Below are positions 24,349 to 42,510 of a DNA stretch of 63,912 nucleotides, piece by piece. A model generated the notes under the pieces. The model saw only the letters and a list, made by a program, of their open reading frames with translations, ran no database searches and was not told the origin of the DNA. Both the position numbers and the translations under genes were made by a program. The stretch spans positions 1 through 63,912 of the forward strand of contig CAMYNQ010000002.1 in assembly GCA_947259785.1 (NCBI GenBank), given 5' to 3'. The first letter of the stretch is position 1. Every line of letters begins with the position of its first letter. This DNA is from an uncultured Chromatiaceae bacterium. GTDB lineage: Bacteria; Pseudomonadota; Gammaproteobacteria; Tenderiales; Tenderiaceae.

Positions 24349-25469
24349 TGGCAAGCCCCTAGTATTCTAGACACCTTATAGCGTTACAATTAACGCAACA
24401 ATGAGGTGTGAAAAATGAGCGGAAAACGCTATCCAGATGAATTTAAAATAGAAGCAGTCAAACAGGTGGTTGATCGAGGTTATAAAGTTGGCGAAGTAGC
24501 GAAGCGGTTAGGTGTTACCACAAAAAGCCTGCATGACTGGATTAAGAAGTACGGTGACACCGGGACGCAACATCAGACTATCACCAGCCAGCAAGATGAA
24601 CTTCGTCGCCTCAAGGCTGAGCTGAGGCGAGTCACTGAAGAGCGAAACATCTTAAAGGAGGCCGCCGCGTTCTTTGCAAGCGAGTCAAAGAAAAGTACGC
24701 GTACATAAAATCACGACTCAATAAATATTCAATTGCAGCCATGTGTCGTGTGTTTCAAATTCAGCGTAGTGGTTTCTATGCTTGGCTCAAGCAGCCTTTG
24801 AGTGATCGTGCAATCGAGGATAAACGGCTCCTTGGGTATATCAAGCAATTCTGGCTGGAAACTGGGTGTTCATATGGATACAGAAATATCACCCTGGATT
24901 TAAAAGATCAGGGTGAAACCTGTGGCAAAAACCGCGTGTACAGAGTGATGAGTAATGCTGGCATACAGGCACAACGTGGCTACAAACGGCATCGAGGTTT
25001 TAAGGGTGGTGACTTAAGCCATGTTGCACCCAACACATTAAATCGTGACTTTAAAGTGCATCAGCCTAACCAAGTGTGGGTCACCGATTTCACCTATATC
25101 CGCACACATGAAGGCTGGCTGTATTTGACGATTGTATTAGATTTGTTCTCCCGCCAGATTGTTGGCTGGAGTATGAAAAACAACCCAAAGGCTGATCTTG
25201 TGATCGATGCGTTGCTGATGGCTTTGTGGCGTCGAAAACCGAAAGCTAAAGTAATGATACATTCCGATCAGGGCGTGCAATACACCTGTTCTGACTGGCG
25301 CAAGTTTTTATCTGATAACAACTTAGAAGCCAGTATGAGTCGGCGGGGAAACTGTCACGATAATGCCGTCGCAGAAAGCTTCTTCTCGCTGCTCAAGACG
25401 GAACGCATCAAGCGGAAGATATTTAAAACCAGGGCTGAGGCTAGATCCGAAATATTTAATTATATTGAG
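24349..25469 (+). mobile_element. IS3-family insertion sequence, 3'-truncated
   Basis: Left end TGGCAAGCCCCTAG...; orfA HTH/leucine zipper plus overlapping orfB with DDE; similarity stops at EIFNYIE and no right IR is seen. Confidence 0.85.
24415..24708 (+). CDS. IS3 transposase OrfA
   Basis: RYPDEFKIEAVKQV...EL.RLKAEL.RV.EER.ILKEAAAFFA. Confidence 0.9.
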   Translation: MSGKRYPDEFKIEAVKQVVDRGYKVGEVAKRLGVTTKSLHDWIKKYGDTGTQHQTITSQQDELRRLKAELRRVTEERNILKEAAAFFASESKKSTRT

Positions 25470-25520
25470 TCCTCTATACAGTTTTCGGCAAAGTCAGCTA
25501 CGGAGCCGCTAACAATATAG
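24708..25520 (+). pseudogene. IS3 transposase OrfB, C-terminally truncated
   Basis: PNQVWVTDFTYI, LDLFSR.IVGW, HSDQG.QY, GNCHDNAVAESFF; lacks the FYN..RRH tail. Confidence 0.85.
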
Positions 25521-25740
25521 CCGTCATCGCCACTACGAAGGGGTTCAAGTGCACCAGTTAAGTTATTCCCTTAAGAATGCTGCACCTGTAATAAAGTTCT
25601 ACCTATTCTGTGTCCTCTAGGTCTTCAATCTCTTCAAACCAAAAGGATAAGGTAGCCTGGTTAATGCTGCATGCTGAGAACAGCTCCGATAGCTCTCCAT
25701 CTATAAAGTCTATTTCATATTCCTCTACTGGCTTCTTCTG
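25470..25740 (-). pseudogene. ArdA-like antirestriction protein remnant
   Basis: PVEEYEIDFIDGELSELFSACSINQATL..WFEEIEDL, then after a stop and shift YIVSGSVADFAENCIED; acidic; family recalled from memory, not searched. Confidence 0.5.
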
Positions 25741-25764
25741 CTTTGATGCTGTGTTATTTCGGAA

Positions 25765-25802
25765 TTGATCCAAAGACAATAGTTGCATTATAGTGCAACT
25801 AT
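25765..25802 (+). promoter_or_regulatory. ArsR operator palindrome overlapping promoter and start codon
   Basis: ATAGTTGCATTA|TAGTGCAACTAT (25779-25802, 11/12 symmetric); TTGATC(25765)-N18-TATAGT(25789). Confidence 0.75.
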
Positions 25803-26202
25803 GCAAATGATTATTATCCAGCCCGAAGCATTTTTCCAGGCCCTGGCCGACGAGGTCCGTCTGCGGATCATCCGCCTGATGGTGGCGAGCGGTGAGGAGT
25901 CTTGTCTATGTGAACTGGTGGACAGTCTGCTGGAACCCTCGTACAAACTTTCCCGTCACCTGAAGATTCTGCGCCAGGCCGGTCTGCTGACTTCTCAAAA
26001 AGAGGGACGCTGGGTCTATCACCGCCTGGTGGTGGAGCCTCCTTACCTGGAGCTGCTGTACGCCACAGTGCAGGCACTGCCTGACCCAGGTGGGGTCTAC
26101 AGTGCAGATTTAAAACGTTTCCGAGAACGCCTTTGTCTGCGCGAAGGCGGGCGTTGTAGGATCGGCATCCAGTCTGATGGATTCAAGGTGGAGGTGGAGT
26201 AA
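25801..26202 (+). CDS. ArsR/SmtB-family transcriptional repressor
   Basis: FQALADEVRLRII, CLCELV, LSRHLKILRQAGLL...KEGRWVYH; C-terminal Cys pair. Confidence 0.9.
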   Translation: MQMIIIQPEAFFQALADEVRLRIIRLMVASGEESCLCELVDSLLEPSYKLSRHLKILRQAGLLTSQKEGRWVYHRLVVEPPYLELLYATVQALPDPGGVYSADLKRFRERLCLREGGRCRIGIQSDGFKVEVE

Positions 26203-26204
26203 CT

Positions 26205-26819
26205 ATGTCCGGTTGTGGTTGTGAAATAGAGATCGAAGACAAAGCGCAAAGCCGCACACTGATTATCTTACTGGCCATCAATGGCGTGATGTTTGTCGCT
26301 GAAATCATCGCCGGTGTCGTCGCTGACTCGACAGCCTTGATTGCCGATTCGCTGGATATGCTCGCTGACGCTTCGGTCTATGCGATTGGTCTATACGCCG
26401 TGGGCAGAAGTCTGCTGGTCAAAGCAAGGGCCGCCCATATCAGTGGTGTTTTTCAGGTGCTGTTGGGGTTGGGCGTTTTGTTCGATATTGTGCGCCGCAC
26501 AATCGTTGGCAGTGAACCGGAATCACTGATGATGATGACGGTGGGCCTAGTGGCGTTGATCGCGAACAGTATTTGCCTGATGCTGATCTATAAACACCGC
26601 CAGGGTGAGGTACACATGCGGGCCAGTTGGATATTTTCCAAAAACGATGTCATCGCCAACCTGGGTGTGATAGGCGGTGGTGTGCTGGTGGCGTGGCTAG
26701 GGTCACCCTGGCCTGATCTGATTATTGGCTTGGTGATTGCGGTAATTGTAGTGCGAGGTGGGGTTCTCATTATCAAAGATGCCAACAACGGGAAGGAGGA
26801 ACAGGGGGCAAAGGCGTGA
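26205..26819 (+). CDS. Short CDF-type cation transporter (Cation_efflux TM domain only)
   Basis: N-terminal SGCGC, STALIADSLDMLADA, HMRASWIFSKNDVIAN, WPDLIIG. Confidence 0.85.
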   Translation: MSGCGCEIEIEDKAQSRTLIILLAINGVMFVAEIIAGVVADSTALIADSLDMLADASVYAIGLYAVGRSLLVKARAAHISGVFQVLLGLGVLFDIVRRTIVGSEPESLMMMTVGLVALIANSICLMLIYKHRQGEVHMRASWIFSKNDVIANLGVIGGGVLVAWLGSPWPDLIIGLVIAVIVVRGGVLIIKDANNGKEEQGAKA

Positions 26820-27454
26820 GTGGAAAATCACGACAGACGATGCAAGGCGCAGTCAGGCAAAAAATGTTGCCGATGGTTATTGCTGTGACCTGTATTGCTG
26901 CCATTGCTGCGAGCTTCATTTGGTGGTGGCAAACAAAAGCTCCGCCTATCCCCGAACACCTGCAAAACATGGGCGGTGATTTTACCTTGCAATCGGCGGA
27001 TGGACCGGTGGCTTTGCAAGGCTTTCGCGGCAAGGTTGTGCTGATCTATTTTGGTTATACCCACTGCCCCGATGCCTGCCCCATGACCATGGCCAACTGG
27101 GCCAGTGCATTCCAACGCTTGACTGAGAAAGAACGGGCACGGGTTAGGGGGTTGCTGGTCAGCGTTGATCCGGAGCGTGACACGCCCGAAACGCTCAAGG
27201 AGTACGCCACTTTTTTTCATTCCAATATCATCGGTGTGACCGGCACACTAGACGCGTTGAGGGACATCACCGGGCTCTATCGTTCCGACTTTGTCGTCGA
27301 AAAAGAGGGAGAGTCTGAAGACTACGAAGTGGGCCACATGTCCTTCGTCTACGTGATTGATCCCCAAGGCAAGGTGAGAGGCTTGCTGGCCCATGACAGT
27401 CCGCTGCAGGATGTCATCGAGCAGATTCGCAACGCGTTACGAGTGGCGTCATGA
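26816..27454 (+). CDS. SCO1/SenC-family copper chaperone
   Basis: N-terminal TM, YFGYTHCPDACP, SVDPERDTPE, distal His (VGHMS). Confidence 0.9.
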   Translation: MSGKSRQTMQGAVRQKMLPMVIAVTCIAAIAASFIWWWQTKAPPIPEHLQNMGGDFTLQSADGPVALQGFRGKVVLIYFGYTHCPDACPMTMANWASAFQRLTEKERARVRGLLVSVDPERDTPETLKEYATFFHSNIIGVTGTLDALRDITGLYRSDFVVEKEGESEDYEVGHMSFVYVIDPQGKVRGLLAHDSPLQDVIEQIRNALRVAS

Positions 27455-27497
27455 GTGTTAAGCCGGGAAAATCCAGCATCTCACAGGGAGAAAGGTA

Positions 27498-28112
27498 GTG
27501 AGCAGAAAGAGCCACTGGGATACAGTTTATAAAGGAAAAGCGGACAATGAGGTGAGCTGGTATCAAAGCAAACCTGAACTGTCGTTGAGGTTGATTGCGG
27601 ACTCAGGCATGTCACGCTCAGGCAGTATCATTGATGTTGGTGGCGGAGCATCTCTGCTGGTTGATTATCTTGTTCATGATGGTTTTAAAAATATCACCGT
27701 ACTTGATATTTCCAGTGCCGCGCTTCGTGTTGCCCAAAAGCGCTTGGGAGAAAGCGCGAAATCTGTCGATTGGATTGAGGCGGATATCACTCAGTTTCAG
27801 TGCGCACAGGCATTCGACCTTTGGCATGACAGGGCGGTATTTCATTTTCTGATTCAGGCGTCAGATCGAAAAAAATATATCGATCTTTTGCATCAGGCGA
27901 TCAGGCCGGGAGGTCACCTTATCATCGCCGCCTTCGCTATCGGCGGGCCGAAAAAATGCAGCGGTCTCGATATTGTTCAGTATGATGCGGCGAAGTTATC
28001 CCGAGAGTTGGGAGAGGCGTTCATTCTTGTAGAACAGGAGGATGAAGCACATATCACGCCCGGCGGGAAGGTGCAGGCGTTTGGGTACTATCGCTTTAAG
28101 AAGCAGGGATAA
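27498..28112 (+). CDS. Class I SAM-dependent methyltransferase
   Basis: HWDTVY...VSWYQ, IIDVGGGAS, VLDIS, WHDRAVFHFL, GP..CSGL. Confidence 0.85.
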   Translation: MSRKSHWDTVYKGKADNEVSWYQSKPELSLRLIADSGMSRSGSIIDVGGGASLLVDYLVHDGFKNITVLDISSAALRVAQKRLGESAKSVDWIEADITQFQCAQAFDLWHDRAVFHFLIQASDRKKYIDLLHQAIRPGGHLIIAAFAIGGPKKCSGLDIVQYDAAKLSRELGEAFILVEQEDEAHITPGGKVQAFGYYRFKKQG

Positions 28113-28385: not shown

Positions 28386-31300
28386 TTAAAAGCGATATCC
28401 CACGCCGACATCCCAGGCATTCACCGCAGTATCGTCAAAGCGATAACTGCGCCATCCAAGCCTTACGGGCAGCTGGTCTGTTGCCATTGCCTCAACACCT
28501 AGGGCAAACCGCACGCCCATGCCGTTCTCACTAAATACACGGCTAACGTTACTCCCGCCCAGTTGATATTCGGCCTGCCAGATGAATGCCCCTATGCTGG
28601 CCTGAAAGCTCAACCAATGAGATGTCTGCCAACCTTTACCGACTGAGAGTGTCCAGAAGTCGGCGGTGGCTGGATAGACGTTGGCTATGTTATTCACGAA
28701 ATCATCTACGTCAACCGCCGTGCCGTTGATGCTCGTAGATACCTCGCCTGCATCTGCATATTCCAGCTCGATCTGCACATTGTTTTGCAGCCTATAACCA
28801 ACATAGACGGACAGGCCGTTACGGTTCAGGTCAGTTTGGCTGACATTCCCGGTCAGCCCCAGATTTTCGAGTTCACGATTGAAGTCATCACTGCGATCCT
28901 TGCCCGATACCTTGAGATAACTCACGCCGACATAATCCGGCCAGTAATCCGCAGCGACGGGTTCCTCGGGTGGCATACCAATCGCAGCGGCCTGCGCCAA
29001 ATTTGGTAAACAAATCATGGCAACGGCAATGGCGCCATATCGGCGTGAACGGCGGATAAGCAACAGCGCGCCCAGCACACTCAATAGCCATGGGCTGAAG
29101 GCACCACCGCCGGTGATGGTAATATTGACAGGTTCTAGGACACGCACGGCTACGCCGCCGGGGTCCTGCACCTGTTGATTGGCTGCATTGTCGGCATCGT
29201 TGGGGCCTCCGTCCTCAATGGTCAATTGTATGCACCAGTGGTCTTCGCTCAGACCAGCGCTGTAGGTGCTGTCACCGGGCGGCGGACAATAGCCTTCGGC
29301 CCCTGCGGTGGAGGCCAGGCTGTTATTGCCATCCTCAACGAAGGTGGCCCAGCCGCTCGGCTGCAACTTGCGATAAAGCGCATCCGCCGGTATCGCCACT
29401 TGCTGCGGGATGACCACACTCACCGACTGACCAGCAATGGGCAGATCGCTCACTTCAAAGTCAAACAGGCTACCGTCATAAGCATACTCATCATCGGCGA
29501 AGGCGCCGGCGCCGCCATTGGCATGTGAACCAATCTCGGCTGTCGTCACCTTGGCTTTGTTGTCGCCGGTACGAAAGGCGACCTCGCCCAGCTTCAGGCT
29601 CAGCCCCGGTTCGGTCTCGAGCACAAACTGGTCGGCGATACCGGCCTGCGCCTGCAGGGCGTTGACCTGGAGGGCGGAGTGATCCAGATAATCGGGCACG
29701 CCGTCACTGTCGCTGTCGCCCGAGCCTTCCACGTTGTCATTGCTGCCATCGCTATCCGAGTCAGTCGCTGCCAGTGTCGGCAGCGCGGCCAGCACTCTGA
29801 CAATCAATTCAGCAGTGTCGCTCAGGTTACCGTTGCTGTTGTCGATAACGGTGACCCGCAGCGTATAGATGCCGATGGTGGTTGGGCTGAAGGTGAAGGC
29901 ATCAACGGCACCGTCACTATCGCTTAGAGCGTTGTCGGTGGCGCTCCAGTCATAGGTATGGGTATCGCCCGGATTGGGATCGGCTACTGAGGCAGTCACA
30001 ACCACATCGGCCGCACCCTGCTCAACCAAGCGCGTAGAACCCGCACCCTGATCGGCCGACAGTGTCACAGCGGGGGCGACATTGCCTTCCTGGATCCGCA
30101 TGGTGTGGCTGGACTTCGGTCCAACCACAGCGTTGGTCGGTGAAGCGCCCAGCGTGACAATCAGGGTTTCCATGCCCTCGGCAACGTCTGCATCGACAAT
30201 GTTAACGGTTACGTCCGTCGACTGACCGGAAGCTATCACTATGTCGCTACTGACCAGATCGTGGTCAGTGCTATCGGCGGTTCCAGATATGCTAATTGGC
30301 ACTGCTACCGGATAGCTCACTGCCGGGCCGTTGAGAATCACCTTGAAGGTCGCAGCGGCCCCTTCGGCCGTGGTCTGGTCTTTACTTAGTTCCACCAGCG
30401 GTACCACATTTACCATCTGGCTTGCGGTCGCGGTGTTACCGGCAGTGTCGGTAGCACTCCAGGTCACGGTGTTAGCACCAGGACGGAAATAGGCCGGCGC
30501 ATCGGAGCTGACGCTCACACTGCCGTCCAGTGCGTCGTTGGCACTTGCCGTACCGACGTCTACTGGCGTGAATAACCCAACTGCATCAACGGTGATATCC
30601 GCTGGCACGCTGATCACCGGCGGGTAATCATCGGCGCCAGCATCGGTAGCGGCGACGGATTCGTCATAGTTGCTGACACCGTCACCATCGAGGTCGCTAT
30701 TTCGGTCGGCGGCACTCAATTTATTAAGACCATTGGCATCCTCGTAGCTATTGCTCATGCCGTCGCCATCGATGTCGGGATCACTGCCATCGACAACTGC
30801 ATCGTTATCGAGGTCTCCCTGCACAGCGCTGGTTGTGGCGCTGGTCACTGTTTCACTTGTACCGCCACCATCGCTGTAACTCGCGACTACGCTGATGGCA
30901 GCGCCGACATCGGCCCGCACCAGGGTGTAGTTTGCACTGGTGGCGCCGGCGATTGTGCTGTCGTTACGTTTCCACTGATAGTTGAATGTGCCCAAACCAT
31001 CGGCATCTGACACAGCGGAGGCATCGGCACTCAATTGCAGATGCTCGATGGCGCTACCATTGATGGTGACCGAGCCTACGGGTGAATCATTAGAGCTACT
31101 TATGCTGATTTCTGCCGTTGATATTGCGCCGGCATGATCATCATTATCCACCGCCATAAAGCTAATTCTGCGATTTGTAGTATCCGGCAGGTCTGACGTG
31201 TTGTTGTAGCGGATCGACTGCATCAACATCTCAATGGTTGCCGCGACTGCCGAGCCATCATTAACCGAAATAGTTAACTCGCCAGTTCCACTGTTATATG

Positions 31301-34300
31301 CACCAATGGTGACCTCTTCATCATTAACCTTCGGGACATCCACGCCATAAGTAGAAACCAAGCTCTCGGCCGCACCACCATCAGGACGATTAATCAATGT
31401 CACGGTCAACGACTTAAAGCTACCATCATCACTAATGGTGCTATCGCTGTCTGCTGCCGCAACAGCGCCACCATCTTCAGAAAAACTGCCGTGGTAACTG
31501 CCGTTGGTTGCACCACTGCTGTCATCGCCATCGAGATCGATGATTGGAGCACGTAGCAAGGTCACGAAGACATTTTGATCGGCTGAAGTGGCACTTCCGC
31601 CATCGCCATCATTAACAGTGATGCGTACTGTTCTGGTATTGGTATTCAAGGTTCCCGCGTCGATATCGCGATATTGCAGCGCGGAGAGCAGATCTCGCAC
31701 GCGGGTAAGGGTGGCATTGGCATTGAGCGCAACCCCCAGAACGTTGCCTCCTGCACCGCCGGCAAAAGTACCTATAGATACGCTATTAGATACGTCATCA
31801 GTGTGGATCACGTTACTACCCGAGGTGGATATATTGCCCACAGAGCCGATTTGCAGCAGGTCTTCACTATTTTCGGCGTTGATAGTGATGCTTGCAGTTA
31901 CATTGCCACCGCTGAAATTGGCAGAGTCGATATCACTCAAGGCGGCATTACCATTGGCATCCAGCACGACAGCATTGCCACCTATACTGAAGCTCACACT
32001 ATCACCATTAAGATGGGTGATCGTAGGCGCATCATTCACCGGCGTAATGGCAATGGTTGCGCTTGCACTGCCGACAGACAAGCCGCCGCCAGAACTATTT
32101 GTAGCCGCCTGTACAGAGAAGACACCATCGGCAGTTCTATTGATGGCCGGGGTAAACTTCAGTCCGGCATTGCCTTCCGCGATGGTGATGAGTCTATTGT
32201 TGCTGATGGGCGTAATGCCGTTATTTTTATACAGCGTCCCGCCAGTGACACCCGTGATCTTGAAGTGGGTCACCTCATCACCGTCATTGATATTACGACT
32301 GATTACCAAGCCAGCGCTGCTTTGAGTATCTTCATTCGTGCTGGCATTGGTCACGCTAGGCACATCACCGATGGCTGTAATGGTAATCGTCGCCGTTGCG
32401 CTGCCTGCAGACAAACCACCGCCAGAACCATCAGTGCCTGCTTGTACATTAAAACTGCCTGAGCCAAAACTGTTGGCTGTCGGGGTAAACTTCAGCCCGG
32501 CATTACCTTCGGCAACGGTGATGAAGCTGTTGTTGCTGATAGACGTTGTGCCGTTATTTTTATACAGCGTCCCACCAGTGATATTGGTGATTTTGAAATG
32601 GGTCACCTCATTGGTGTCATTAATGTTGCGACTGATCACCAGACCACTTGTGCTTTGTGTATCCTCATTGGTCGACGTATTCGTCACTCTAGGTGTGTCG
32701 CCTACCGGTGAAATGGTAATAGTCGCCATTGCACTGCCCACAGACAAACCAACGTCAGATTCATTTGTAGCAGACTGAACATTAAACGAACCGTTGCTAC
32801 TGCTGTTCGCTGTTGGAGTAAACTTCAGCCCGGCATCGCCTTCAGCAAAGGTGATGAAGCTATCATCGTCAATAGCAGTGGTGCCATCATTTTTGTACAG
32901 CGTCCCACCAGTGATATTGGTGATCTTGAAATGGGTCACCTCTGTACCGTCATTCACGTTGCGACTAATCACCAGACCAGTTGTGCTTTGCGTATCCTCA
33001 TTGGTCGACGTATTCGTCACTCTAGGTGTGTCGCCTATCGGTGTAATGGTAATGGTCGCCGTTGCACTGCCCGCAGACAAACCGCCGCCAGACCCATCTG
33101 TGCCGGCCTGCACATCAAAACTGCCTGAGCTAAGACTGTTGACTGTCGGCGTAAACTTCAGTCCGGCATTGCCTTCGACGAAGGTAATAAAACTATTATT
33201 AGCAATGGCAGTGGTGCCATCATTTTTATACAGCGTACCGCCGCTGATACTGCTGATCTTGAAGTGGGTCACCTCATTGCCGTCATTAATGTTACGGCTG
33301 ATCACCAGACCAGTTGTGCTTTGCGTATCCTCATTGGTCGACGTATTCGTCACACTGGGTGTGTCGCCTATCGGTGTAATAGTAATGGTCGCCGTTGCAC
33401 TGCCGACAGACAACCCACTGCCAACAACATCCGTAGCGGCCTGAACATTAAACGAACCGTTGCTACTGCTGTTTGCTGTTGGGGTAAACTTTAGTCCGGC
33501 ATTGCCTTCAGCGACAGTAATAAAGCTATTATTGGCAATGGCAGTGGTGCCATCATTTTTATACAGCGTTCCACCAGTGATACTGTTGATCTTGAAATGG
33601 GTCACCTCATTGCCGTCATTAATGTTACGACTAATCACGAGGCCACCTGTGCTTTGCGTATCCTCACTGGTCGACGTATTCGTCACTCTAGGTGTGTCGC
33701 CTACCGGTGAAATGGTAATGGTCGCCGTTGCACTGACTGCAGACAACCCACTGCCAACATCATCCGTAGCGGCCTGAACATTAAACGAACCGTTGCTACT
33801 GCTGTTCGCTGTTGGGGTAAACTTCAGTCCGGCATTGCCTTCGACGAAGGTAATAAAACTATTATTGGCAATGGCAGTGGTGCCATCATTTTTGTACAGC
33901 GTCCCACCAGTGATATTGGTGATCTTGAAATGGGTCACCTCTGTACCGTCATTCACGTTGCGACTGATCACCAGACCAGTTGTGCTTTGCGTATCTTCAA
34001 TCGTGCTGGCATTGGTCACGCTAGGACCATCACCAATAACCGTAATGGTAATGGTCGCCGTTGCACTGCCCGCAGACAAACCACTGCCAACACCATCCAT
34101 AGCGGCCTGAACATCAAATGAACCGTTGCTACTGCTGTTTTCTGTTGGAGTAAACTTCAGCCCGGCATTGCCTTCGGCGACGGTGATGAAGCTATCATCG
34201 TCAATAGCAGTGGTGCCATCATTTTTGTACAGCGTCCCACCAGTGATATTGGTGATCTTGAAATGGGTCACCTCTGTACCGTCATTCACGTTGCGACTAA

Positions 34301-37300
34301 TCACCAGACCAGTTGTGCTTTGCGTATCCTCATTGGTCGACGTATTCGTCACTCTAGGTGTGTCGCCTATCGGTGTAATGGTAATGGTCGCCGTTGCACT
34401 GCCCGCAGACAAACCGCCGCCAGACCCATCTGTGCCGGCCTGCACATCAAAACTGCCTGAGCTAAGACTGTTGACTGTCGGCGTAAACTTCAGTCCGGCA
34501 TTGCCTTCGACGAAGGTAATAAAACTATTATTAGCAATGGCAGTGGTGCCATCATTTTTATACAGCGTACCGCCGCTGATACTGCTGATCTTGAAGTGAG
34601 TCACCTCTGTACCGTCATTCACGTTGCGACTAATCACCAGACCAGTTGTGCTTTGCGTATCTTCATCCGTGCTGGTATTGGTCACGCTAGGCGCATCACC
34701 AATGACTGTAATGGTAATGGTCGCTGTTGCACTGCCGACAGACAACCCACTGCCAACATCATCCGTAGCGGCCTGAACATTAAACGAACCGTTGTTGTTG
34801 CTGTTCGCTGTTGGAGTAAACTTCAGTCCGGCATTGCCCTCGGGGAAGGTAATAAAACTATTATTGGCAATGGCAGTGGTTCCATCATTTTTATACAGCG
34901 TCCCGCCAGTGATACCCGTGATCTTGAAGTGGGTAACCTCGTTACCGTCATTGGCATTTCGACTGATTACCAAGCCAGCGCTGCTTTGCGTATCTTCATT
35001 CGTGTTGGCATTGGTCACGCTAGGCACATCAGCAATGGCTGCAATGCTTATCGTCGCCGTTACGCTGCCTGCAGACAAACCACCGCCAGAACCATCTGTG
35101 CTTGCCTGTACATTAAAACTGCCTGAGCTAATGCTGTTTGCAGTCGGAGTAAACTTCAATCCGGCATTGCCTTCGGCGAAGGTGATGAAGCTATTGTTGC
35201 TGATGGGCGTTGTGCCGTTGTTTTGATACAGCGCCCCGCCAGTGATATCGGTGATCTTGAAGTGGGTCACCTCGGTGCTGTCATTGGTATTACGACTAAT
35301 CACCAGGCCAGCGCTGCTTTGCTGATCTTCATCCGTGCTGGCATTGGTCACGCTAGGTACATCACCAATGGCTGTAATAGTAATCGTCGCCGTTGTACTG
35401 CCTGCAGATAAACCACCGCCAGAATCATCTGTGCCTGCCTGCACCTCAAAACTGCCTGAGCTAATGCTGTTTGCAGTCGGAGTAAACTTCAATCCGGCAT
35501 TACCTTCAGCGAAGGTGATGAAGCTATTATTGCTGATAGGCGTTGTGCCATCATTCTTATACAGCGTACCGCCGCTGATATTGGTGATCTTGAAGTGGGT
35601 CACCTCGGTGCCATCATTGGTATTTCGACTGATTACCAAGCCACTTGTGCTTTGCGTATCTTCATTCGTGCTGGCATTGGTCACACTTGGCGTATCCGCA
35701 GTTGCTGACACCGTAATCGTTGCCGTGGCAGTGCCTGTAGAGAGGCCACCACCAATAGCATCCGTTGCCGCTTGAATATCAAACGAACCATTGATATTGC
35801 TGTTGGCTGTTGGGGTAAACTTCAGCCCGGCATTGCCTTCGGCAACGGTGATGAAGCTGTTGTTGCTGATGGGCGTTGTGCCGTTATTTTTAAACAGCGT
35901 CCCGCCAGTGATATCGGTGACCTTAAAATGGGTCACCTCATTGCCATCATTTACATTACGACTGATCACCAGCCCCGATGTGGTTTGGGTATCTTCATTG
36001 GTTGAAGCCCCTGTTACACTGGGTGTATCGCCTATAGGTGTAATGATAATCGTCGCCGTTGTACTGCCTGCAGATAAACCACCGCCAGAACCATCTGTGC
36101 CTGCCTGCACCTCAAAACTGCCTGAGCTAATGCTGTTTGCAGTCGGAGTAAACTTCAATCCGGCATTACCTTCAGCGAAGGTGATGAAGCTATTATTGCT
36201 GATAGGCGTTGTGCCATCATTCTTATACAGCGTACCGCCGCTGATATTGGTGGTCTTGAAATGGGTCACCTCGGTGCCATCATTGGTATTTCGACTGATT
36301 ACCAAGCCACTTGTGCTTTGCGTATCTTCATTCGTGCTGGCATTGGTCACACTTGGCGTATCCGCAGCTGCTGACACCGTAATCGTTGCCGTGGCAGTGC
36401 CTGTAGAGAGGCCACCACCAATAGCATCCGTTGCCGCTTGAATATCAAACGAACCATTGATATTGCTGTTGGCTGTTGGGGTAAACTTCAGCCCGGCATT
36501 GCCTTCGGCAACAGTGATGAAGCTATTGTTGCTTATGGGCGTTGTGCCGTTGTTTTGATACAGCGTACCGCCGCTGATACCGGTGATCTTGAAGTGGGTC
36601 ACCTCGGTGCCATCATTGGTATTTCGACTGATTACCAAGCCACTTGTGCTTTGCGTATCTTCATTCGTGCTGGCATTGGTCACACTTGGCGTATCCGCAG
36701 TTGCTGACACCGTAATCGTTGCCGTGGCAGTGCCTGTAGAGAGGCCACCACCAATAGCATCCGTTGCCGCTTGAATATCAAACGAACCATTGATATTGCT
36801 GTTGGCTGTTGGGGTAAACTTCAGCCCGGCATTGCCTTCGGCAACGGTGATGAAGCTGTTGTTGCTGATGGGCGTTGTGCCGTTATTTTTAAACAGCGTC
36901 CCGCCAGTGATATCGGTGACCTTAAAATGGGTCACCTCATTGCCATCATTTACATTACGACTGATCACCAGCCCCGATGTGGTTTGGGTATCTTCATTGG
37001 TTGAAGCCCCTGTTACACTGGGTGTATCGCCTATAGGTGTAATGATAATCGTCGCCGTTGTACTGCCTGCAGATAAACCACCGCCAGAACCATCTGTGCC
37101 TGCCTGCACCTCAAAACTGCCTGAGCTAATGCTGTTTGCAGTCGGAGTAAACTTCAATCCGGCATTACCTTCAGCGAAGGTGATGAAGCTATTATTGCTG
37201 ATAGGCGTTGTGCCATCATTCTTATACAGCGTACCGCCGCTGATATTGGTGGTCTTGAAATGGGTCACCTCGGCATCGTCATTTACATTACGACTGATCA

Positions 37301-38663
37301 CCAGGCCAGCGCTGCTTTGAATATCTTCGTTAGTGGTCGTATCGGTAACGTTCGGTATATCCGCTACTGCAGTGATATCCACATTTACGGTTCCCAAAGA
37401 GATATCTGTCCCACCACCGCTACCGGTATTACCAGCATCGTTGGCAGTAAGCGTTAAAATAGCGGCATTATTACCCGTTGCATTGCTGGCACCGGTGTAT
37501 TTAATGTTTGATGTGGTATCCAGGAAGGTATCAATATTGACTACAGTGCCGGTCAAGGTAATGGTAGTCGTGCCGGAACCAGCGATTGTTACGCCACCCC
37601 CAGAGGTGGCGGTCAGGGTGCCTGTTCCGGCAGCAATGGTCAGGGTGATGCTGGCCGATGCAGAATCCACATCACTCAGGGTGGCGGCGCTGAGATCCAC
37701 ATTGCTTGCGGTATCTTCGGTAACGGTGACCATTGCTGGCAATGAAGCGATGGTCGGATCATCGTTGACGGCAGTCACACTGGTTTCCACTGAAACTCCG
37801 GCGGCAGACACCTTTGACGTATCGTCGTCAGAGGTGGTGTCAAAGGTTTGTTGGGTAGCATCACTGGTAAAGGTGGTGGCGCTGGAGTTATCCACGGCAT
37901 ACACCGTTAAGGAACCAGGTGTGCCGTTATAGTGATTAAAAGGTACGAAGCGGAGTTTTGAAGTGCTAGGCAGTAGCAGGGCAGATGAAGTAGAGACTGT
38001 GCCAATGTCAAACCAGGTACTGCCGTCAGTAGTATATTCCCAGTCCCCTTCCACACCGGTTGAAGAGGCGTCTGCAGTCACTGCAATCCCCGCCATGCTG
38101 CTACTCGGATCAACATCGCTGAAACTGGCATCCAGCAAAGAGGTGACAGTTGTGCCTGCAGGTGAGGCGGCGTCTTCATTAACCGGCGCAAGGGTCGTTC
38201 CAGCATTGAATGATGGAGCGTCATTGATTGATGTGGCCGTGATTTGAGTCGCGCTATCGGCAGAGCCATCCTGCGTGCCATCATTGGGTGTCAGTGTAAA
38301 CGTAGTTACCACCGTAGAACCGACAGCCACCTGGTTGGCCGTCGGCGTAAACACGATGCCTTGCAGATTAATGGTTGCAGTGTCGGGCGCTGCGGATGTC
38401 ACCGTGTAGTTGCCTGCAATCCCTGTTATCCCTGTGCCACTTAATGTGCCATTCGCCGCGGTATAGATAATGGTTACACTAACATTATCAATATCGGGGT
38501 CTGATACCGTTACGTCGCTGAATGGATTGGTTGTTGTATTGTCATTAACAGCGCCGGCAGAGGTGCCGACGAGAGTAGGGGCAGCCGCTAGACTGGTTTC
38601 TGAAAGCATCATTAACATCATAGATGTAAACAAAAAACTTATAGATGATCTTGATTTATTCAT
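28386..38663 (-). CDS. Giant (3425 aa) repetitive surface protein/adhesin: signal peptide, Ig/cadherin-like repeats, TSP3-like Ca motifs, internal GlyGly-CTERM-like anchor, C-terminal beta-barrel
   Basis: Signal peptide; xNDAP-delimited modules; 16 x 111-aa repeats; DxDxDG motifs; IEDGGPNDAD..N..V.DPGG; GGGAFSPWLL...RRSRR; C-terminus GVGYRF. Confidence 0.9.
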   Translation of the reverse strand: MNKSRSSISFLFTSMMLMMLSETSLAAAPTLVGTSAGAVNDNTTTNPFSDVTVSDPDIDNVSVTIIYTAANGTLSGTGITGIAGNYTVTSAAPDTATINLQGIVFTPTANQVAVGSTVVTTFTLTPNDGTQDGSADSATQITATSINDAPSFNAGTTLAPVNEDAASPAGTTVTSLLDASFSDVDPSSSMAGIAVTADASSTGVEGDWEYTTDGSTWFDIGTVSTSSALLLPSTSKLRFVPFNHYNGTPGSLTVYAVDNSSATTFTSDATQQTFDTTSDDDTSKVSAAGVSVETSVTAVNDDPTIASLPAMVTVTEDTASNVDLSAATLSDVDSASASITLTIAAGTGTLTATSGGGVTIAGSGTTTITLTGTVVNIDTFLDTTSNIKYTGASNATGNNAAILTLTANDAGNTGSGGGTDISLGTVNVDITAVADIPNVTDTTTNEDIQSSAGLVISRNVNDDAEVTHFKTTNISGGTLYKNDGTTPISNNSFITFAEGNAGLKFTPTANSISSGSFEVQAGTDGSGGGLSAGSTTATIIITPIGDTPSVTGASTNEDTQTTSGLVISRNVNDGNEVTHFKVTDITGGTLFKNNGTTPISNNSFITVAEGNAGLKFTPTANSNINGSFDIQAATDAIGGGLSTGTATATITVSATADTPSVTNASTNEDTQSTSGLVISRNTNDGTEVTHFKITGISGGTLYQNNGTTPISNNSFITVAEGNAGLKFTPTANSNINGSFDIQAATDAIGGGLSTGTATATITVSAAADTPSVTNASTNEDTQSTSGLVISRNTNDGTEVTHFKTTNISGGTLYKNDGTTPISNNSFITFAEGNAGLKFTPTANSISSGSFEVQAGTDGSGGGLSAGSTTATIIITPIGDTPSVTGASTNEDTQTTSGLVISRNVNDGNEVTHFKVTDITGGTLFKNNGTTPISNNSFITVAEGNAGLKFTPTANSNINGSFDIQAATDAIGGGLSTGTATATITVSATADTPSVTNASTNEDTQSTSGLVISRNTNDGTEVTHFKITNISGGTLYKNDGTTPISNNSFITFAEGNAGLKFTPTANSISSGSFEVQAGTDDSGGGLSAGSTTATITITAIGDVPSVTNASTDEDQQSSAGLVISRNTNDSTEVTHFKITDITGGALYQNNGTTPISNNSFITFAEGNAGLKFTPTANSISSGSFNVQASTDGSGGGLSAGSVTATISIAAIADVPSVTNANTNEDTQSSAGLVISRNANDGNEVTHFKITGITGGTLYKNDGTTAIANNSFITFPEGNAGLKFTPTANSNNNGSFNVQAATDDVGSGLSVGSATATITITVIGDAPSVTNTSTDEDTQSTTGLVISRNVNDGTEVTHFKISSISGGTLYKNDGTTAIANNSFITFVEGNAGLKFTPTVNSLSSGSFDVQAGTDGSGGGLSAGSATATITITPIGDTPRVTNTSTNEDTQSTTGLVISRNVNDGTEVTHFKITNITGGTLYKNDGTTAIDDDSFITVAEGNAGLKFTPTENSSSNGSFDVQAAMDGVGSGLSAGSATATITITVIGDGPSVTNASTIEDTQSTTGLVISRNVNDGTEVTHFKITNITGGTLYKNDGTTAIANNSFITFVEGNAGLKFTPTANSSSNGSFNVQAATDDVGSGLSAVSATATITISPVGDTPRVTNTSTSEDTQSTGGLVISRNINDGNEVTHFKINSITGGTLYKNDGTTAIANNSFITVAEGNAGLKFTPTANSSSNGSFNVQAATDVVGSGLSVGSATATITITPIGDTPSVTNTSTNEDTQSTTGLVISRNINDGNEVTHFKISSISGGTLYKNDGTTAIANNSFITFVEGNAGLKFTPTVNSLSSGSFDVQAGTDGSGGGLSAGSATATITITPIGDTPRVTNTSTNEDTQSTTGLVISRNVNDGTEVTHFKITNITGGTLYKNDGTTAIDDDSFITFAEGDAGLKFTPTANSSSNGSFNVQSATNESDVGLSVGSAMATITISPVGDTPRVTNTSTNEDTQSTSGLVISRNINDTNEVTHFKITNITGGTLYKNNGTTSISNNSFITVAEGNAGLKFTPTANSFGSGSFNVQAGTDGSGGGLSAGSATATITITAIGDVPSVTNASTNEDTQSSAGLVISRNINDGDEVTHFKITGVTGGTLYKNNGITPISNNRLITIAEGNAGLKFTPAINRTADGVFSVQAATNSSGGGLSVGSASATIAITPVNDAPTITHLNGDSVSFSIGGNAVVLDANGNAALSDIDSANFSGGNVTASITINAENSEDLLQIGSVGNISTSGSNVIHTDDVSNSVSIGTFAGGAGGNVLGVALNANATLTRVRDLLSALQYRDIDAGTLNTNTRTVRITVNDGDGGSATSADQNVFVTLLRAPIIDLDGDDSSGATNGSYHGSFSEDGGAVAAADSDSTISDDGSFKSLTVTLINRPDGGAAESLVSTYGVDVPKVNDEEVTIGAYNSGTGELTISVNDGSAVAATIEMLMQSIRYNNTSDLPDTTNRRISFMAVDNDDHAGAISTAEISISSSNDSPVGSVTINGSAIEHLQLSADASAVSDADGLGTFNYQWKRNDSTIAGATSANYTLVRADVGAAISVVASYSDGGGTSETVTSATTSAVQGDLDNDAVVDGSDPDIDGDGMSNSYEDANGLNKLSAADRNSDLDGDGVSNYDESVAATDAGADDYPPVISVPADITVDAVGLFTPVDVGTASANDALDGSVSVSSDAPAYFRPGANTVTWSATDTAGNTATASQMVNVVPLVELSKDQTTAEGAAATFKVILNGPAVSYPVAVPISISGTADSTDHDLVSSDIVIASGQSTDVTVNIVDADVAEGMETLIVTLGASPTNAVVGPKSSHTMRIQEGNVAPAVTLSADQGAGSTRLVEQGAADVVVTASVADPNPGDTHTYDWSATDNALSDSDGAVDAFTFSPTTIGIYTLRVTVIDNSNGNLSDTAELIVRVLAALPTLAATDSDSDGSNDNVEGSGDSDSDGVPDYLDHSALQVNALQAQAGIADQFVLETEPGLSLKLGEVAFRTGDNKAKVTTAEIGSHANGGAGAFADDEYAYDGSLFDFEVSDLPIAGQSVSVVIPQQVAIPADALYRKLQPSGWATFVEDGNNSLASTAGAEGYCPPPGDSTYSAGLSEDHWCIQLTIEDGGPNDADNAANQQVQDPGGVAVRVLEPVNITITGGGAFSPWLLSVLGALLLIRRSRRYGAIAVAMICLPNLAQAAAIGMPPEEPVAADYWPDYVGVSYLKVSGKDRSDDFNRELENLGLTGNVSQTDLNRNGLSVYVGYRLQNNVQIELEYADAGEVSTSINGTAVDVDDFVNNIANVYPATADFWTLSVGKGWQTSHWLSFQASIGAFIWQAEYQLGGSNVSRVFSENGMGVRFALGVEAMATDQLPVRLGWRSYRFDDTAVNAWDVGVGYRF
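32035..37362 (-). repeat. 16 tandem 333-bp (111-aa) coding repeats
   Basis: GLVISRN and GLKFTP counted 16 times each; antisense ORFs recur at 333-, 999- and 1332-bp offsets. Confidence 0.92.
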
Positions 38664-41029: not shown

Positions 41030-42510
41030 ATGAGGTTGGGCTCTAAAATTATACTTGGGTATGTATTGCCTGCCTGTCTCGTCATCGTGCTTGGTGTTGT
41101 CAACTATCAGGCTACAGAGCGCATCGAGCAGCAAAATGCATTGGTGGTTGGCATAGTGATGCCCAATATTCAGGCCCTGCAAAAGATAGAAACCGGTGGC
41201 CTGCGTATTATCGCTATTACCAGTGAATTGATCTAGATGCATGGCTAAGACATTAATGTTTTTGATACCGAGTATTCAATCAGCCAAAGCGCACGAAACT
41301 TAGGAACTGAAACTCGAAACAGAAAATCTGCAGCGAGGCCTAATTGGAGACAAGCAAAACAGTATTTTTGGCAGCGGAATCGCCTTTGTCAGCGTTATTT
41401 TGCTCGGTTTGTTTTTGGCTCGTTCAGTCAGTCGGCCGATAATTGAGCTGAAAGATGCAGCGGTCGCTCTGGGGCAGGGTGATTTGAATGCGCGAGTCAA
41501 AATTAGATCAAATGATGAAGTGGGCACTCTGGCCGGTTCATTTAATGTCATGGGTGATGAGCTGGGTATGGCCGCGACCGTATTCGAAAATACCAGCGAA
41601 GCGATACTGATAACGGATGCCAATGCCAATATTGTTGCGGCCAATAAAGCGTTTGAATCTATCACCGGCTATCAGGAAACGGAGGTGGTTGGTAATAAGC
41701 CAGGCCATATTAAATCCAACCGCCATGATAAATCGTTTTATCAACAGCTATGGTCAGAATTGCTTGATACCGGGGTGTGGCGTGGTGAGCTCTGGAATCA
41801 GCGCAAGAATGGTGAACAGTTTCCTGTCTGGCAATCGATTCGTGCAATTGAAAATAAAAATGGTGATGTTAGTCATTATGTATCGGTATTTTCCGATATC
41901 AGTGCGCTCAAACAGTTACAGGAGAAGCTCGATTATCTAGTCTACCATGACCCGCTAACCGGCTTGCCCAACCGCCTGTTGTTTGAAGATCGGCTTGAAC
42001 AAGCGCTTAAACATGGCAAACGCGAAACCCATGATGTCGTACTGTTTTTTTGGATATGGATCGGTTAAAAAATATCAATGACAGTCTGGGACACCCGGTT
42101 GGGGATGCCTTGCTAGTGGAAATTTCGAAATGTTTGAATAAGCTGGTGTGGCAAGAGGACACCGTTGCCCGTTTGGGGGTGATGAATTTGTTGTCATTCT
42201 AAAACGGATTGAAAAACCGAAAGATGGGGCCAAATTGGCGCACAAGATTCTCGACGCCTTTAATGAGTCGATTGTGACAGAAGGCCACGAATTACTTGTC
42301 ACCTTGAGTATCGGTATTAGCCAGTATCCGGTTGACGGGAGGGAGGCGCACGCTGGTCAGAAATGGTGATTCGGCACTCTACTGAGCCAAGGAAGAGGGG
42401 CGTAATTGCTCGCAGTTTTACACCTCGGAGATGACCACAAATGTAGCTGCAAAGTTAATGACGGAAACGGCGCTGAGAGCAGAGCAATTAACACTATATT
42501 ACCAGCCATT
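41030..42510 (+). pseudogene. Decayed HAMP-PAS-GGDEF(-EAL) signalling gene
   Basis: HAMP (DEVGTLAGSFN), PAS (W.GE.WN.RKNGE), HDPLTGLPNR, NDSLGH.VGD, GGDEF; several stops, frameshifts and deletions. Confidence 0.85.

Follow-up and report, generated by a model that had tools for sequence, protein, structure and literature searches.

In the GlyGly-CTERM sorting pathway as described for VesB, rhombosortase cleaves the substrate at its tag, a phosphoethanolamine lipid is attached to the newly formed C-terminus, and the T2SS (type II secretion system) carries the product to the cell surface (PMC6219818). A related arrangement, treated in one Discussion paragraph of PMC11980579, is MXAN_5598 of Myxococcus xanthus, in which an adhesin with an internal MYXO-CTERM is followed by an outer-membrane barrel and an OmpA domain; its authors propose that the N-terminal part is processed and surface-anchored, and call the fusion rare and atypical. 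In the TraA/TraB system, a sorted surface adhesin and its partner barrel are encoded by overlapping open reading frames (ORFs), and their 1:1 colocalisation has been reported; TraB is said to associate with TraA and to be required for a functional adhesin (PMC6626042, PMC12045341).

Here we analyze a gene of an uncultured Chromatiaceae bacterium (assembly GCA_947259785.1, contig CAMYNQ010000002.1; the window, i.e. the whole stretch of DNA analyzed, comprises 63,912 nucleotides) in which a giant adhesin, a sorting tag, a second signal peptide and a β-barrel succeed one another. We consider it probable that the product is a polyprotein that would be cut by rhombosortase and signal peptidase I (SPase I), yielding a lipid-anchored adhesin and a separate barrel as its outer-membrane partner. 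Taken by itself, the polyprotein part appears highly probable; that the barrel associates with the adhesin or steadies it in the outer membrane is the weakest step, for which we put the chances at about even. Cleavage by signal peptidase at an internal signal peptide that follows a membrane anchor divides viral envelope polyproteins into two proteins, and reportedly the fbcH cytochrome b-c1 precursor of Bradyrhizobium; to our knowledge, bacterial polyproteins that are split in this manner have rarely been described.

Layout of the gene and its junction

The reading frame is uninterrupted, with zero internal stops, and its motifs lie, all in one frame, where the earlier note, made from the letters alone, had placed them (Table 1). 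Within the stalk, a Big_9 match (E 4.4e-6) is located at the end of the array, and most copies of the 111-aa repeat go unrecognized by Pfam. The DNA of repeats 1-2 and 4-5 is 100% identical and that of repeats 9 and 13 is 99.7% identical, which reflects either recent duplication or an uncertain assembly of the copy number. The gene is flanked (window positions 24741-28112 and 41400-42068) on one side by an IS3-type integrase fragment and a cluster of ArsR, cation-efflux, SCO and methyltransferase genes, and on the other by a HAMP-PAS ORF that ends 36 aa into a GGDEF domain and is possibly broken.

Table 1. Positions of the features of the adhesin-barrel gene within the window.
Feature	Position	Strand	Remark
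Whole ORF	28386..38663	-	3425 aa; proposed precursor of adhesin and barrel
N-terminal Sec-type signal peptide, aa1-26	38586..38663	-	ends SLA; from sequence, putative cleavage site placed by eye
16 tandem 111-aa repeats	31941..37268	-	Ig/cadherin-like stalk; 70-100% identical; boundaries from VTHFK register
Calx-beta-like and PKD-like domains	29784..30563	-	PF22352 and PF18911 over cut-off; PF03160 weak
Choice-of-anchor U domain, aa3063-3173	29145..29477	-	NF041766, 38-43 bits (cut-off 32)
DPGGVAV motif, aa3167-3173	29165-29145	-	from sequence
GGG motif, aa3185-3187	29103..29111	-	predicted rhombosortase cut and lipidation site, by analogy with VesB (PMC6219818)
GGGAFSPW, aa3185-3192	29111-29088	-	from sequence
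Helix 1 (GlyGly-CTERM membrane helix), aa3188-3203	29055..29102	-	predicted stop-transfer
Basic loop RRSRR, aa3204-3208	29040..29054	-	predicted cytoplasmic; end of tag and n-region of second signal
Internal signal peptide, h- and c-regions, aa3209-3225	28989..29039	-	ends AQA; predicted SPase I site
AQA, aa3223-3225	28997-28989	-	from sequence
Predicted mature outer-membrane protein, aa3226-3425	28389..28988	-	200 aa; 8-stranded OmpA-type barrel, C-terminal Phe
GVGYRF, aa3420-3425	28406-28389	-	C-terminal end of ORF

At the junction, a Gly-rich motif, a membrane helix and a basic cluster follow in the order of a sorting tag (GGG-AFSPWLLSVLGALLLI-RRSRR). The two junction helices are the top two 11-mers for hydrophobicity in the whole protein (KD 2.92 at aa3193 and 2.28 at aa3209), and the N-terminal signal segment ranks third (aa10). 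By the TIGR03501 profile the tag is borderline: A 29-aa piece scores 16.2 bits against a cut-off of 15.5, longer pieces of the junction score 13.4-15.0 and the genome scan gives 14.4, and these values below cut-off in longer contexts count against our model. The scores of three terminal GlyGly tags encoded elsewhere in the genome (14.4, 12.4 and 11.2) do not exceed that of the internal tag, and among nine inspected frames of this genome, seven others have a conventional GlyGly tag at their terminus. With TIGR03901 (MYXO-CTERM) the tag reaches 18.3 bits, below the cut-off of 20, and its motif is without Cys. The internal tag does not occupy the extreme C-terminus, as 217 aa follow the basic cluster. 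Cys3218 was considered as a lipoprotein site and rejected because AMIC is not a lipobox. A scan for promoters and terminators around the junction returned chance-level signals only.

The C-terminal ~200 aa were matched by PF13505 (E 1.6e-13) and by PF01389. In the predicted fold of this tail (mean pLDDT 88.8) there are eight membrane strands, and loops 1-3 are long, with two helices and extra strands; the nearest structures are OmpA, Ail, OprF and OmpX. Profiles, fold and structure matches hence agree with the proposed ~8-stranded outer-membrane protein, with eight amphipathic strands and a C-terminal aromatic residue. A Pfam scan of the tail found no OmpA wall-binding domain in this gene, and the U domain gave zero matches to PDB sequences. 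The rhombosortase and the T2SS that the earlier note had suggested looking for are both encoded in the genome: Profile searches identified a rhombosortase (TIGR03902, 157.6 bits), GspD (592.5) and GspL (300) as well as an SPase I gene, all over cut-off.

Fused and split forms among relatives

A search with the last 366 aa returned 2318 matches, and among the best 150 cluster representatives of these the barrel resides in the same chain in 119. Relatives share the in-frame junction at 30-53% identity; it is found in three genomes of the same family (49-52% identity), and the fused form also occurs in complete chromosomes and type strains; Cellvibrio mixtus, Shewanella abyssi and Moritella dasanensis are among the species that carry it. 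The junction was examined in a set of 151 barrels, non-redundant at 70%, of which eight were dropped (seven partial profile starts, one truncated) and 143 analyzed. A GlyGly helix lies within 100 aa of the barrel in 138 of the 143. Signal peptides were called by a rule of our own that considers n-, h- and c-regions and small residues at -3 and -1. This n-h-AxA rule is passed by 134 of the 138 non-redundant junctions, compared to 18.6 (maximum 30) in shuffles, 2.2% of 2000 random adhesin-body windows and one of 25 read-throughs past real terminal tags; with a stricter parse of helix 1, 130 of 132 pass (shuffles 23.6, maximum 36). In 128 of 130 homologues, the loop is positively charged, with a net value of at least +2. 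Small-x-A is found 3-12 residues past the h-region in 130 of 136, compared to 85.7 ± 5.0 when only downstream residues are shuffled, and x-Q-A was observed 58 times, compared to 18.6 when n and h are fixed and the downstream part is shuffled. Moreover, the GlyGly motif and its helix are retained across the homologue set, with a hydrophobicity like that of terminal tags (median 2.44 vs 2.23). The second n-h-AxA segment that the earlier note had postulated behind the GlyGly helix is thus present here and recurs in the homologues, which keep the AxA site.

From the species genomes, the best 80 of 452 related stretches were combined with the family loci to give 100 U-domain loci: 60 are fused (our gene and some duplicates included), 13 are split (12 distinct), 25 have a terminal tag without a nearby barrel, and two are cut by contig ends, numbers that, like those of the cluster representatives, are not frequencies because the order of both sets follows similarity to a query of the fused form. 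Both natural forms envisaged beforehand, fused and split, hence exist. In the 12 distinct split loci, a normal terminal GlyGly-CTERM followed by a stop codon closes the adhesin, and the next gene downstream encodes the barrel, with a clear ATG and signal peptide in ten; one has a broken start, one an uncertain start, and one barrel gene is ~700 nt away. The two genes share an ATGA overlap in five split loci, and the Shine-Dalgarno (SD) energy is -4 kcal/mol or better in seven of the ten checked. In one split barrel gene (L079), the signal peptide and the body of the barrel are encoded in different frames, owing to a frameshift or a sequencing error. From the natural two-gene forms it follows that the products work as separate proteins, and since the join is kept in more than 100 relatives while others have two adjacent genes, the chain is likely cut in two.

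On a tree of 47 fused and 11 split barrels, the state changes five times, at least four times forced by well-supported branches, and as the tree is unrooted, the order of fusion and fission is not assignable from it. Monophyly of the split form is rejected (p-AU 0.001), and the barrel of our gene belongs to an all-fused clade of eight (support 100/99). Rhombosortase was found in 48 of the 51 genomes with a fused form and in 11 of the 12 with a split form vs 64 of 200 class-wide, with the relatives not being independent. In an evenly drawn set of 200 genomes from the class, 20 contained a barrel match. The nine best of these (E <= 2e-35), all from genomes with rhombosortase, comprise eight fused via the same junction and one stand-alone barrel; the weaker matches are mostly ordinary stand-alone barrels. 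A low-sensitivity word-index search for stand-alone barrels gave 0 of 87 candidates and, from 3484, one that is a partial fused protein.

The relatives also display variations of the layout. The five homologues of the 143 that lack a GlyGly helix near the barrel were considered as direct Ig-barrel fusions without helices; this was rejected because the junction sits further upstream, followed by Ig domains and then the barrel. Two of the five were scanned, and each has an OmpA domain of the peptidoglycan-binding kind. A longer second product after the same type of junction, consisting of Ig domains, an OmpA peptidoglycan-binding domain and then the barrel, is seen in P0079, P0087, P0117, P0131, P0135 and L133. 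The profile of this domain, PF00691, was found in second products of P0087, P0117, P0169 and P0121, and in P0121 and P0169 it sits after the barrel in a TraB-like order. Second products with this domain must be periplasmic, which matches TraB (PMC6626042, PMC12045341). In P0086 and P0160, one merged helix without a basic loop lies between the GlyGly motif and AxA, and this is not explained by the proposed topology. P0018 and L093 have a Cys-type tag (GGC...DP), which we take to be JDVT-CTERM-like, in GlyGly's place after the U domain; in P0018 it is followed in the same chain by a signal-like segment and then by a long tail with an OmpA-like domain at the end. A tandem pair of U-domain proteins with terminal GlyGly tags is located at G000:C8:33427-36137, and similar ~690-aa U-domain genes recur across the family.

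Proposed processing and competing readings

In the mechanism that we propose, the N-terminal signal would take the adhesin through Sec until helix 1 halts the transfer; the RRSRR loop would remain cytoplasmic and helix 2 would restart export, giving the helical hairpin suggested by the motif pattern. SPase I would cut after AQA3225, whereupon BAM may insert the 200-aa barrel, and rhombosortase would cut at GGG3185-3187. By homology with VesB, the new C-terminus would receive a phosphoethanolamine lipid and the T2SS would carry the ~3160-aa adhesin to the surface. In the outer membrane, the barrel may bind or steady the adhesin, in a role like that of TraB towards TraA.

It is the last step that is at issue if the chain is cut as proposed but the barrel is merely co-produced, being a porin or adhesin of the OmpA/Ail type that acts independently and does not physically serve the giant protein. 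We consider this unlikely, since the linkage survives repeated fusion and fission, a GlyGly protein is tied to eight of the nine best barrels of the even sample, and some of the second products carry wall-binding OmpA domains. It is compatible with the 25 of 100 U-domain loci that have no barrel nearby, with the stand-alone relatives of the barrel (G202 and the weaker matches) and with the covariation analysis (167 rows, Neff 121), in which the best U-barrel pair has z 4.2 and zero such pairs are in the top 30, under a shuffle control that breaks shared ancestry. Two fused barrels, in turn, have no U domain within 1.5 kb, so that neither is a strict partner of the other; the many U-domain proteins without barrel count against a strict adhesin-barrel partnership. 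The role that we tentatively assign to the barrel recalls TraB because of the tight linkage and the occasional wall-binding domains.

A separate barrel could also originate from an internal in-frame start, with the junction as a relic overlap and the long chain's copy being cut off and degraded. Split loci start at exactly this position, an in-frame start with an SD of -4 or better exists in 14 of 48 fused loci (some strong, in Cellvibrio), and 22 of 69 candidate starts (32%) have a good SD vs ~20% background; internal initiation may therefore contribute. In three Cellvibrio loci (L077, L098, L100), the codons for the Gly-Gly pair that closes helix 1 provide a strong SD (-9 to -11 kcal/mol) before in-frame ATGs, which makes internal initiation also possible there. 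As a general route, however, it is contradicted by the 31 of 48 fused loci without an ATG able to start the barrel, by the 13 of 48 without any ATG, GTG or TTG, and by our gene, which offers one TTG with a weak SD (-2.4) and an ATG (M3216) that sits within the h-region of the internal signal. We therefore judge this origin of the barrel to be very unlikely.

Just as slender is the chance that SPase I alone acts at the junction, so that the barrel is freed, whereas for the adhesin either the uncut hairpin keeps it fixed in the inner membrane or another protease cuts it. This reading presupposes that the internal tag is a poor rhombosortase substrate. The borderline TIGR03501 score points in this direction, as does the remark by Haft and Varghese that the extreme C-terminal location may aid substrate recognition by rhombosortase, which counts against our model (PMC3237569). 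On the other hand, homologues keep the GlyGly motif and a helix as hydrophobic as in terminal tags, rhombosortase co-occurs with the fused form, and a 3100-aa repeat stalk would presumably be too long for the periplasm.

An uncut chain whose barrel exports and anchors its own passenger, in the manner of an autotransporter, would account for the order of passenger and barrel and for the C-terminal Phe. It is nevertheless extremely unlikely: The best matches of the barrel, to OmpA, Ail and OprF, have E values of 1e-10 to 1e-8, and autotransporter structures reach only ~2e-5 (TM 0.33), two membrane helices and an Arg loop separate the parts, and split forms exist. Type Va autotransporters have a 12-stranded barrel and a soluble linker, whereas eight strands and a two-helix membrane linker are found here, so that the earlier objection to a 12-stranded autotransporter stands. 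Finally, an artefact or a recent stop-codon loss in this assembly, a draft of 296 contigs, has a negligible probability, being refuted by the conservation of the fused form in the family, in complete chromosomes and type strains, and in the cluster representatives.

With these alternatives weighed, we return to the polyprotein processed by rhombosortase and SPase I, whose broadest form is a widespread gammaproteobacterial display cassette: Rhombosortase would act on internal tags, the hairpin would be cut on both sides by two proteases, and a dedicated 8-stranded barrel subfamily, sometimes wall-anchored, would be the outer-membrane receptor for giant GlyGly adhesins, as a TraAB-like polyprotein. 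We regard this generalization as possible, if somewhat doubtful.

Comparison with known systems

The precedents for division by an internal signal peptide, fbcH and the viral polyproteins, differ from the proposed precursor in that their products are inner-membrane or viral proteins and a sortase-type second cut is missing. With OmpA, OmpX and Ail (PF01389, PF13505), the barrel shares eight strands, the C-terminal Phe and the best structure matches, but it differs from them by its long, helix-bearing loops 1-3 and by being made as the tail of a giant precursor.

GlyGly-CTERM/rhombosortase sorting (TIGR03501, TIGR03902) is matched by the Gly-rich motif, helix, basic cluster and N-terminal signal, and by the presence of rhombosortase and T2SS. 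In contrast to the substrates described in the available text of PMC3237569 and PMC6219818, the tag here is separated from the C-terminus by 217 aa, with a second signal and a barrel behind it. The gene product would work like a GlyGly-CTERM substrate, although the 'C-terminal' feature is lacking, and it is not an autotransporter; as GlyGly-CTERM is C-terminal by definition, the internal position departs from that definition. The words 'barrel' and 'internal' are absent from the main text of PMC3237569 and PMC13393428, and the layout is not described in the available text of PMC3237569, PMC13393428, PMC11980579, 10.1101/2023.06.07.544157, PMC6219818, PMC12153261, 10.64898/2026.01.27.701733 and PMC7876108. 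We found no description of a GlyGly-type tag-signal-barrel fusion in the literature; one may exist in the supplements of PMC3237569 or in subscription journals.

Should both cuts indeed occur, each of more than 100 annotated 'giant OmpA-domain proteins' (from Cellvibrio, Hahella, Shewanella, Moritella and other genera) would be two proteins. The layout also suggests a protein that could be the partner of lipid-anchored T2SS adhesins in the outer membrane. With fused and split pairs available in nature, it is directly testable whether rhombosortase needs the C-terminal position and whether the barrel is needed for holding a 3000-aa adhesin.

MXAN_5598 resembles our gene in that an adhesin with an internal sorting tag is followed by an outer-membrane barrel. 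It carries a Cys-type MYXO-CTERM, a substrate of myxosortase, and an OmpA wall-binding domain, and the paragraph devoted to it mentions neither a second signal peptide nor a release of the barrel (PMC11980579). The form described here, in contrast, is of the GlyGly type, common in Gammaproteobacteria and usually without wall-binding domain. From TraA/TraB it differs as well: That system consists of two genes, uses another tag and protease and has a wall-binding domain on TraB throughout (PMC6626042, PMC12045341), the invariant Cys of its MYXO-CTERM type is missing from our tag, and nothing here points to outer-membrane exchange. The likeness to Myxococcus TraA/TraB rests on layout, in that the split loci share its gene arrangement (PMC6626042, PMC12045341).
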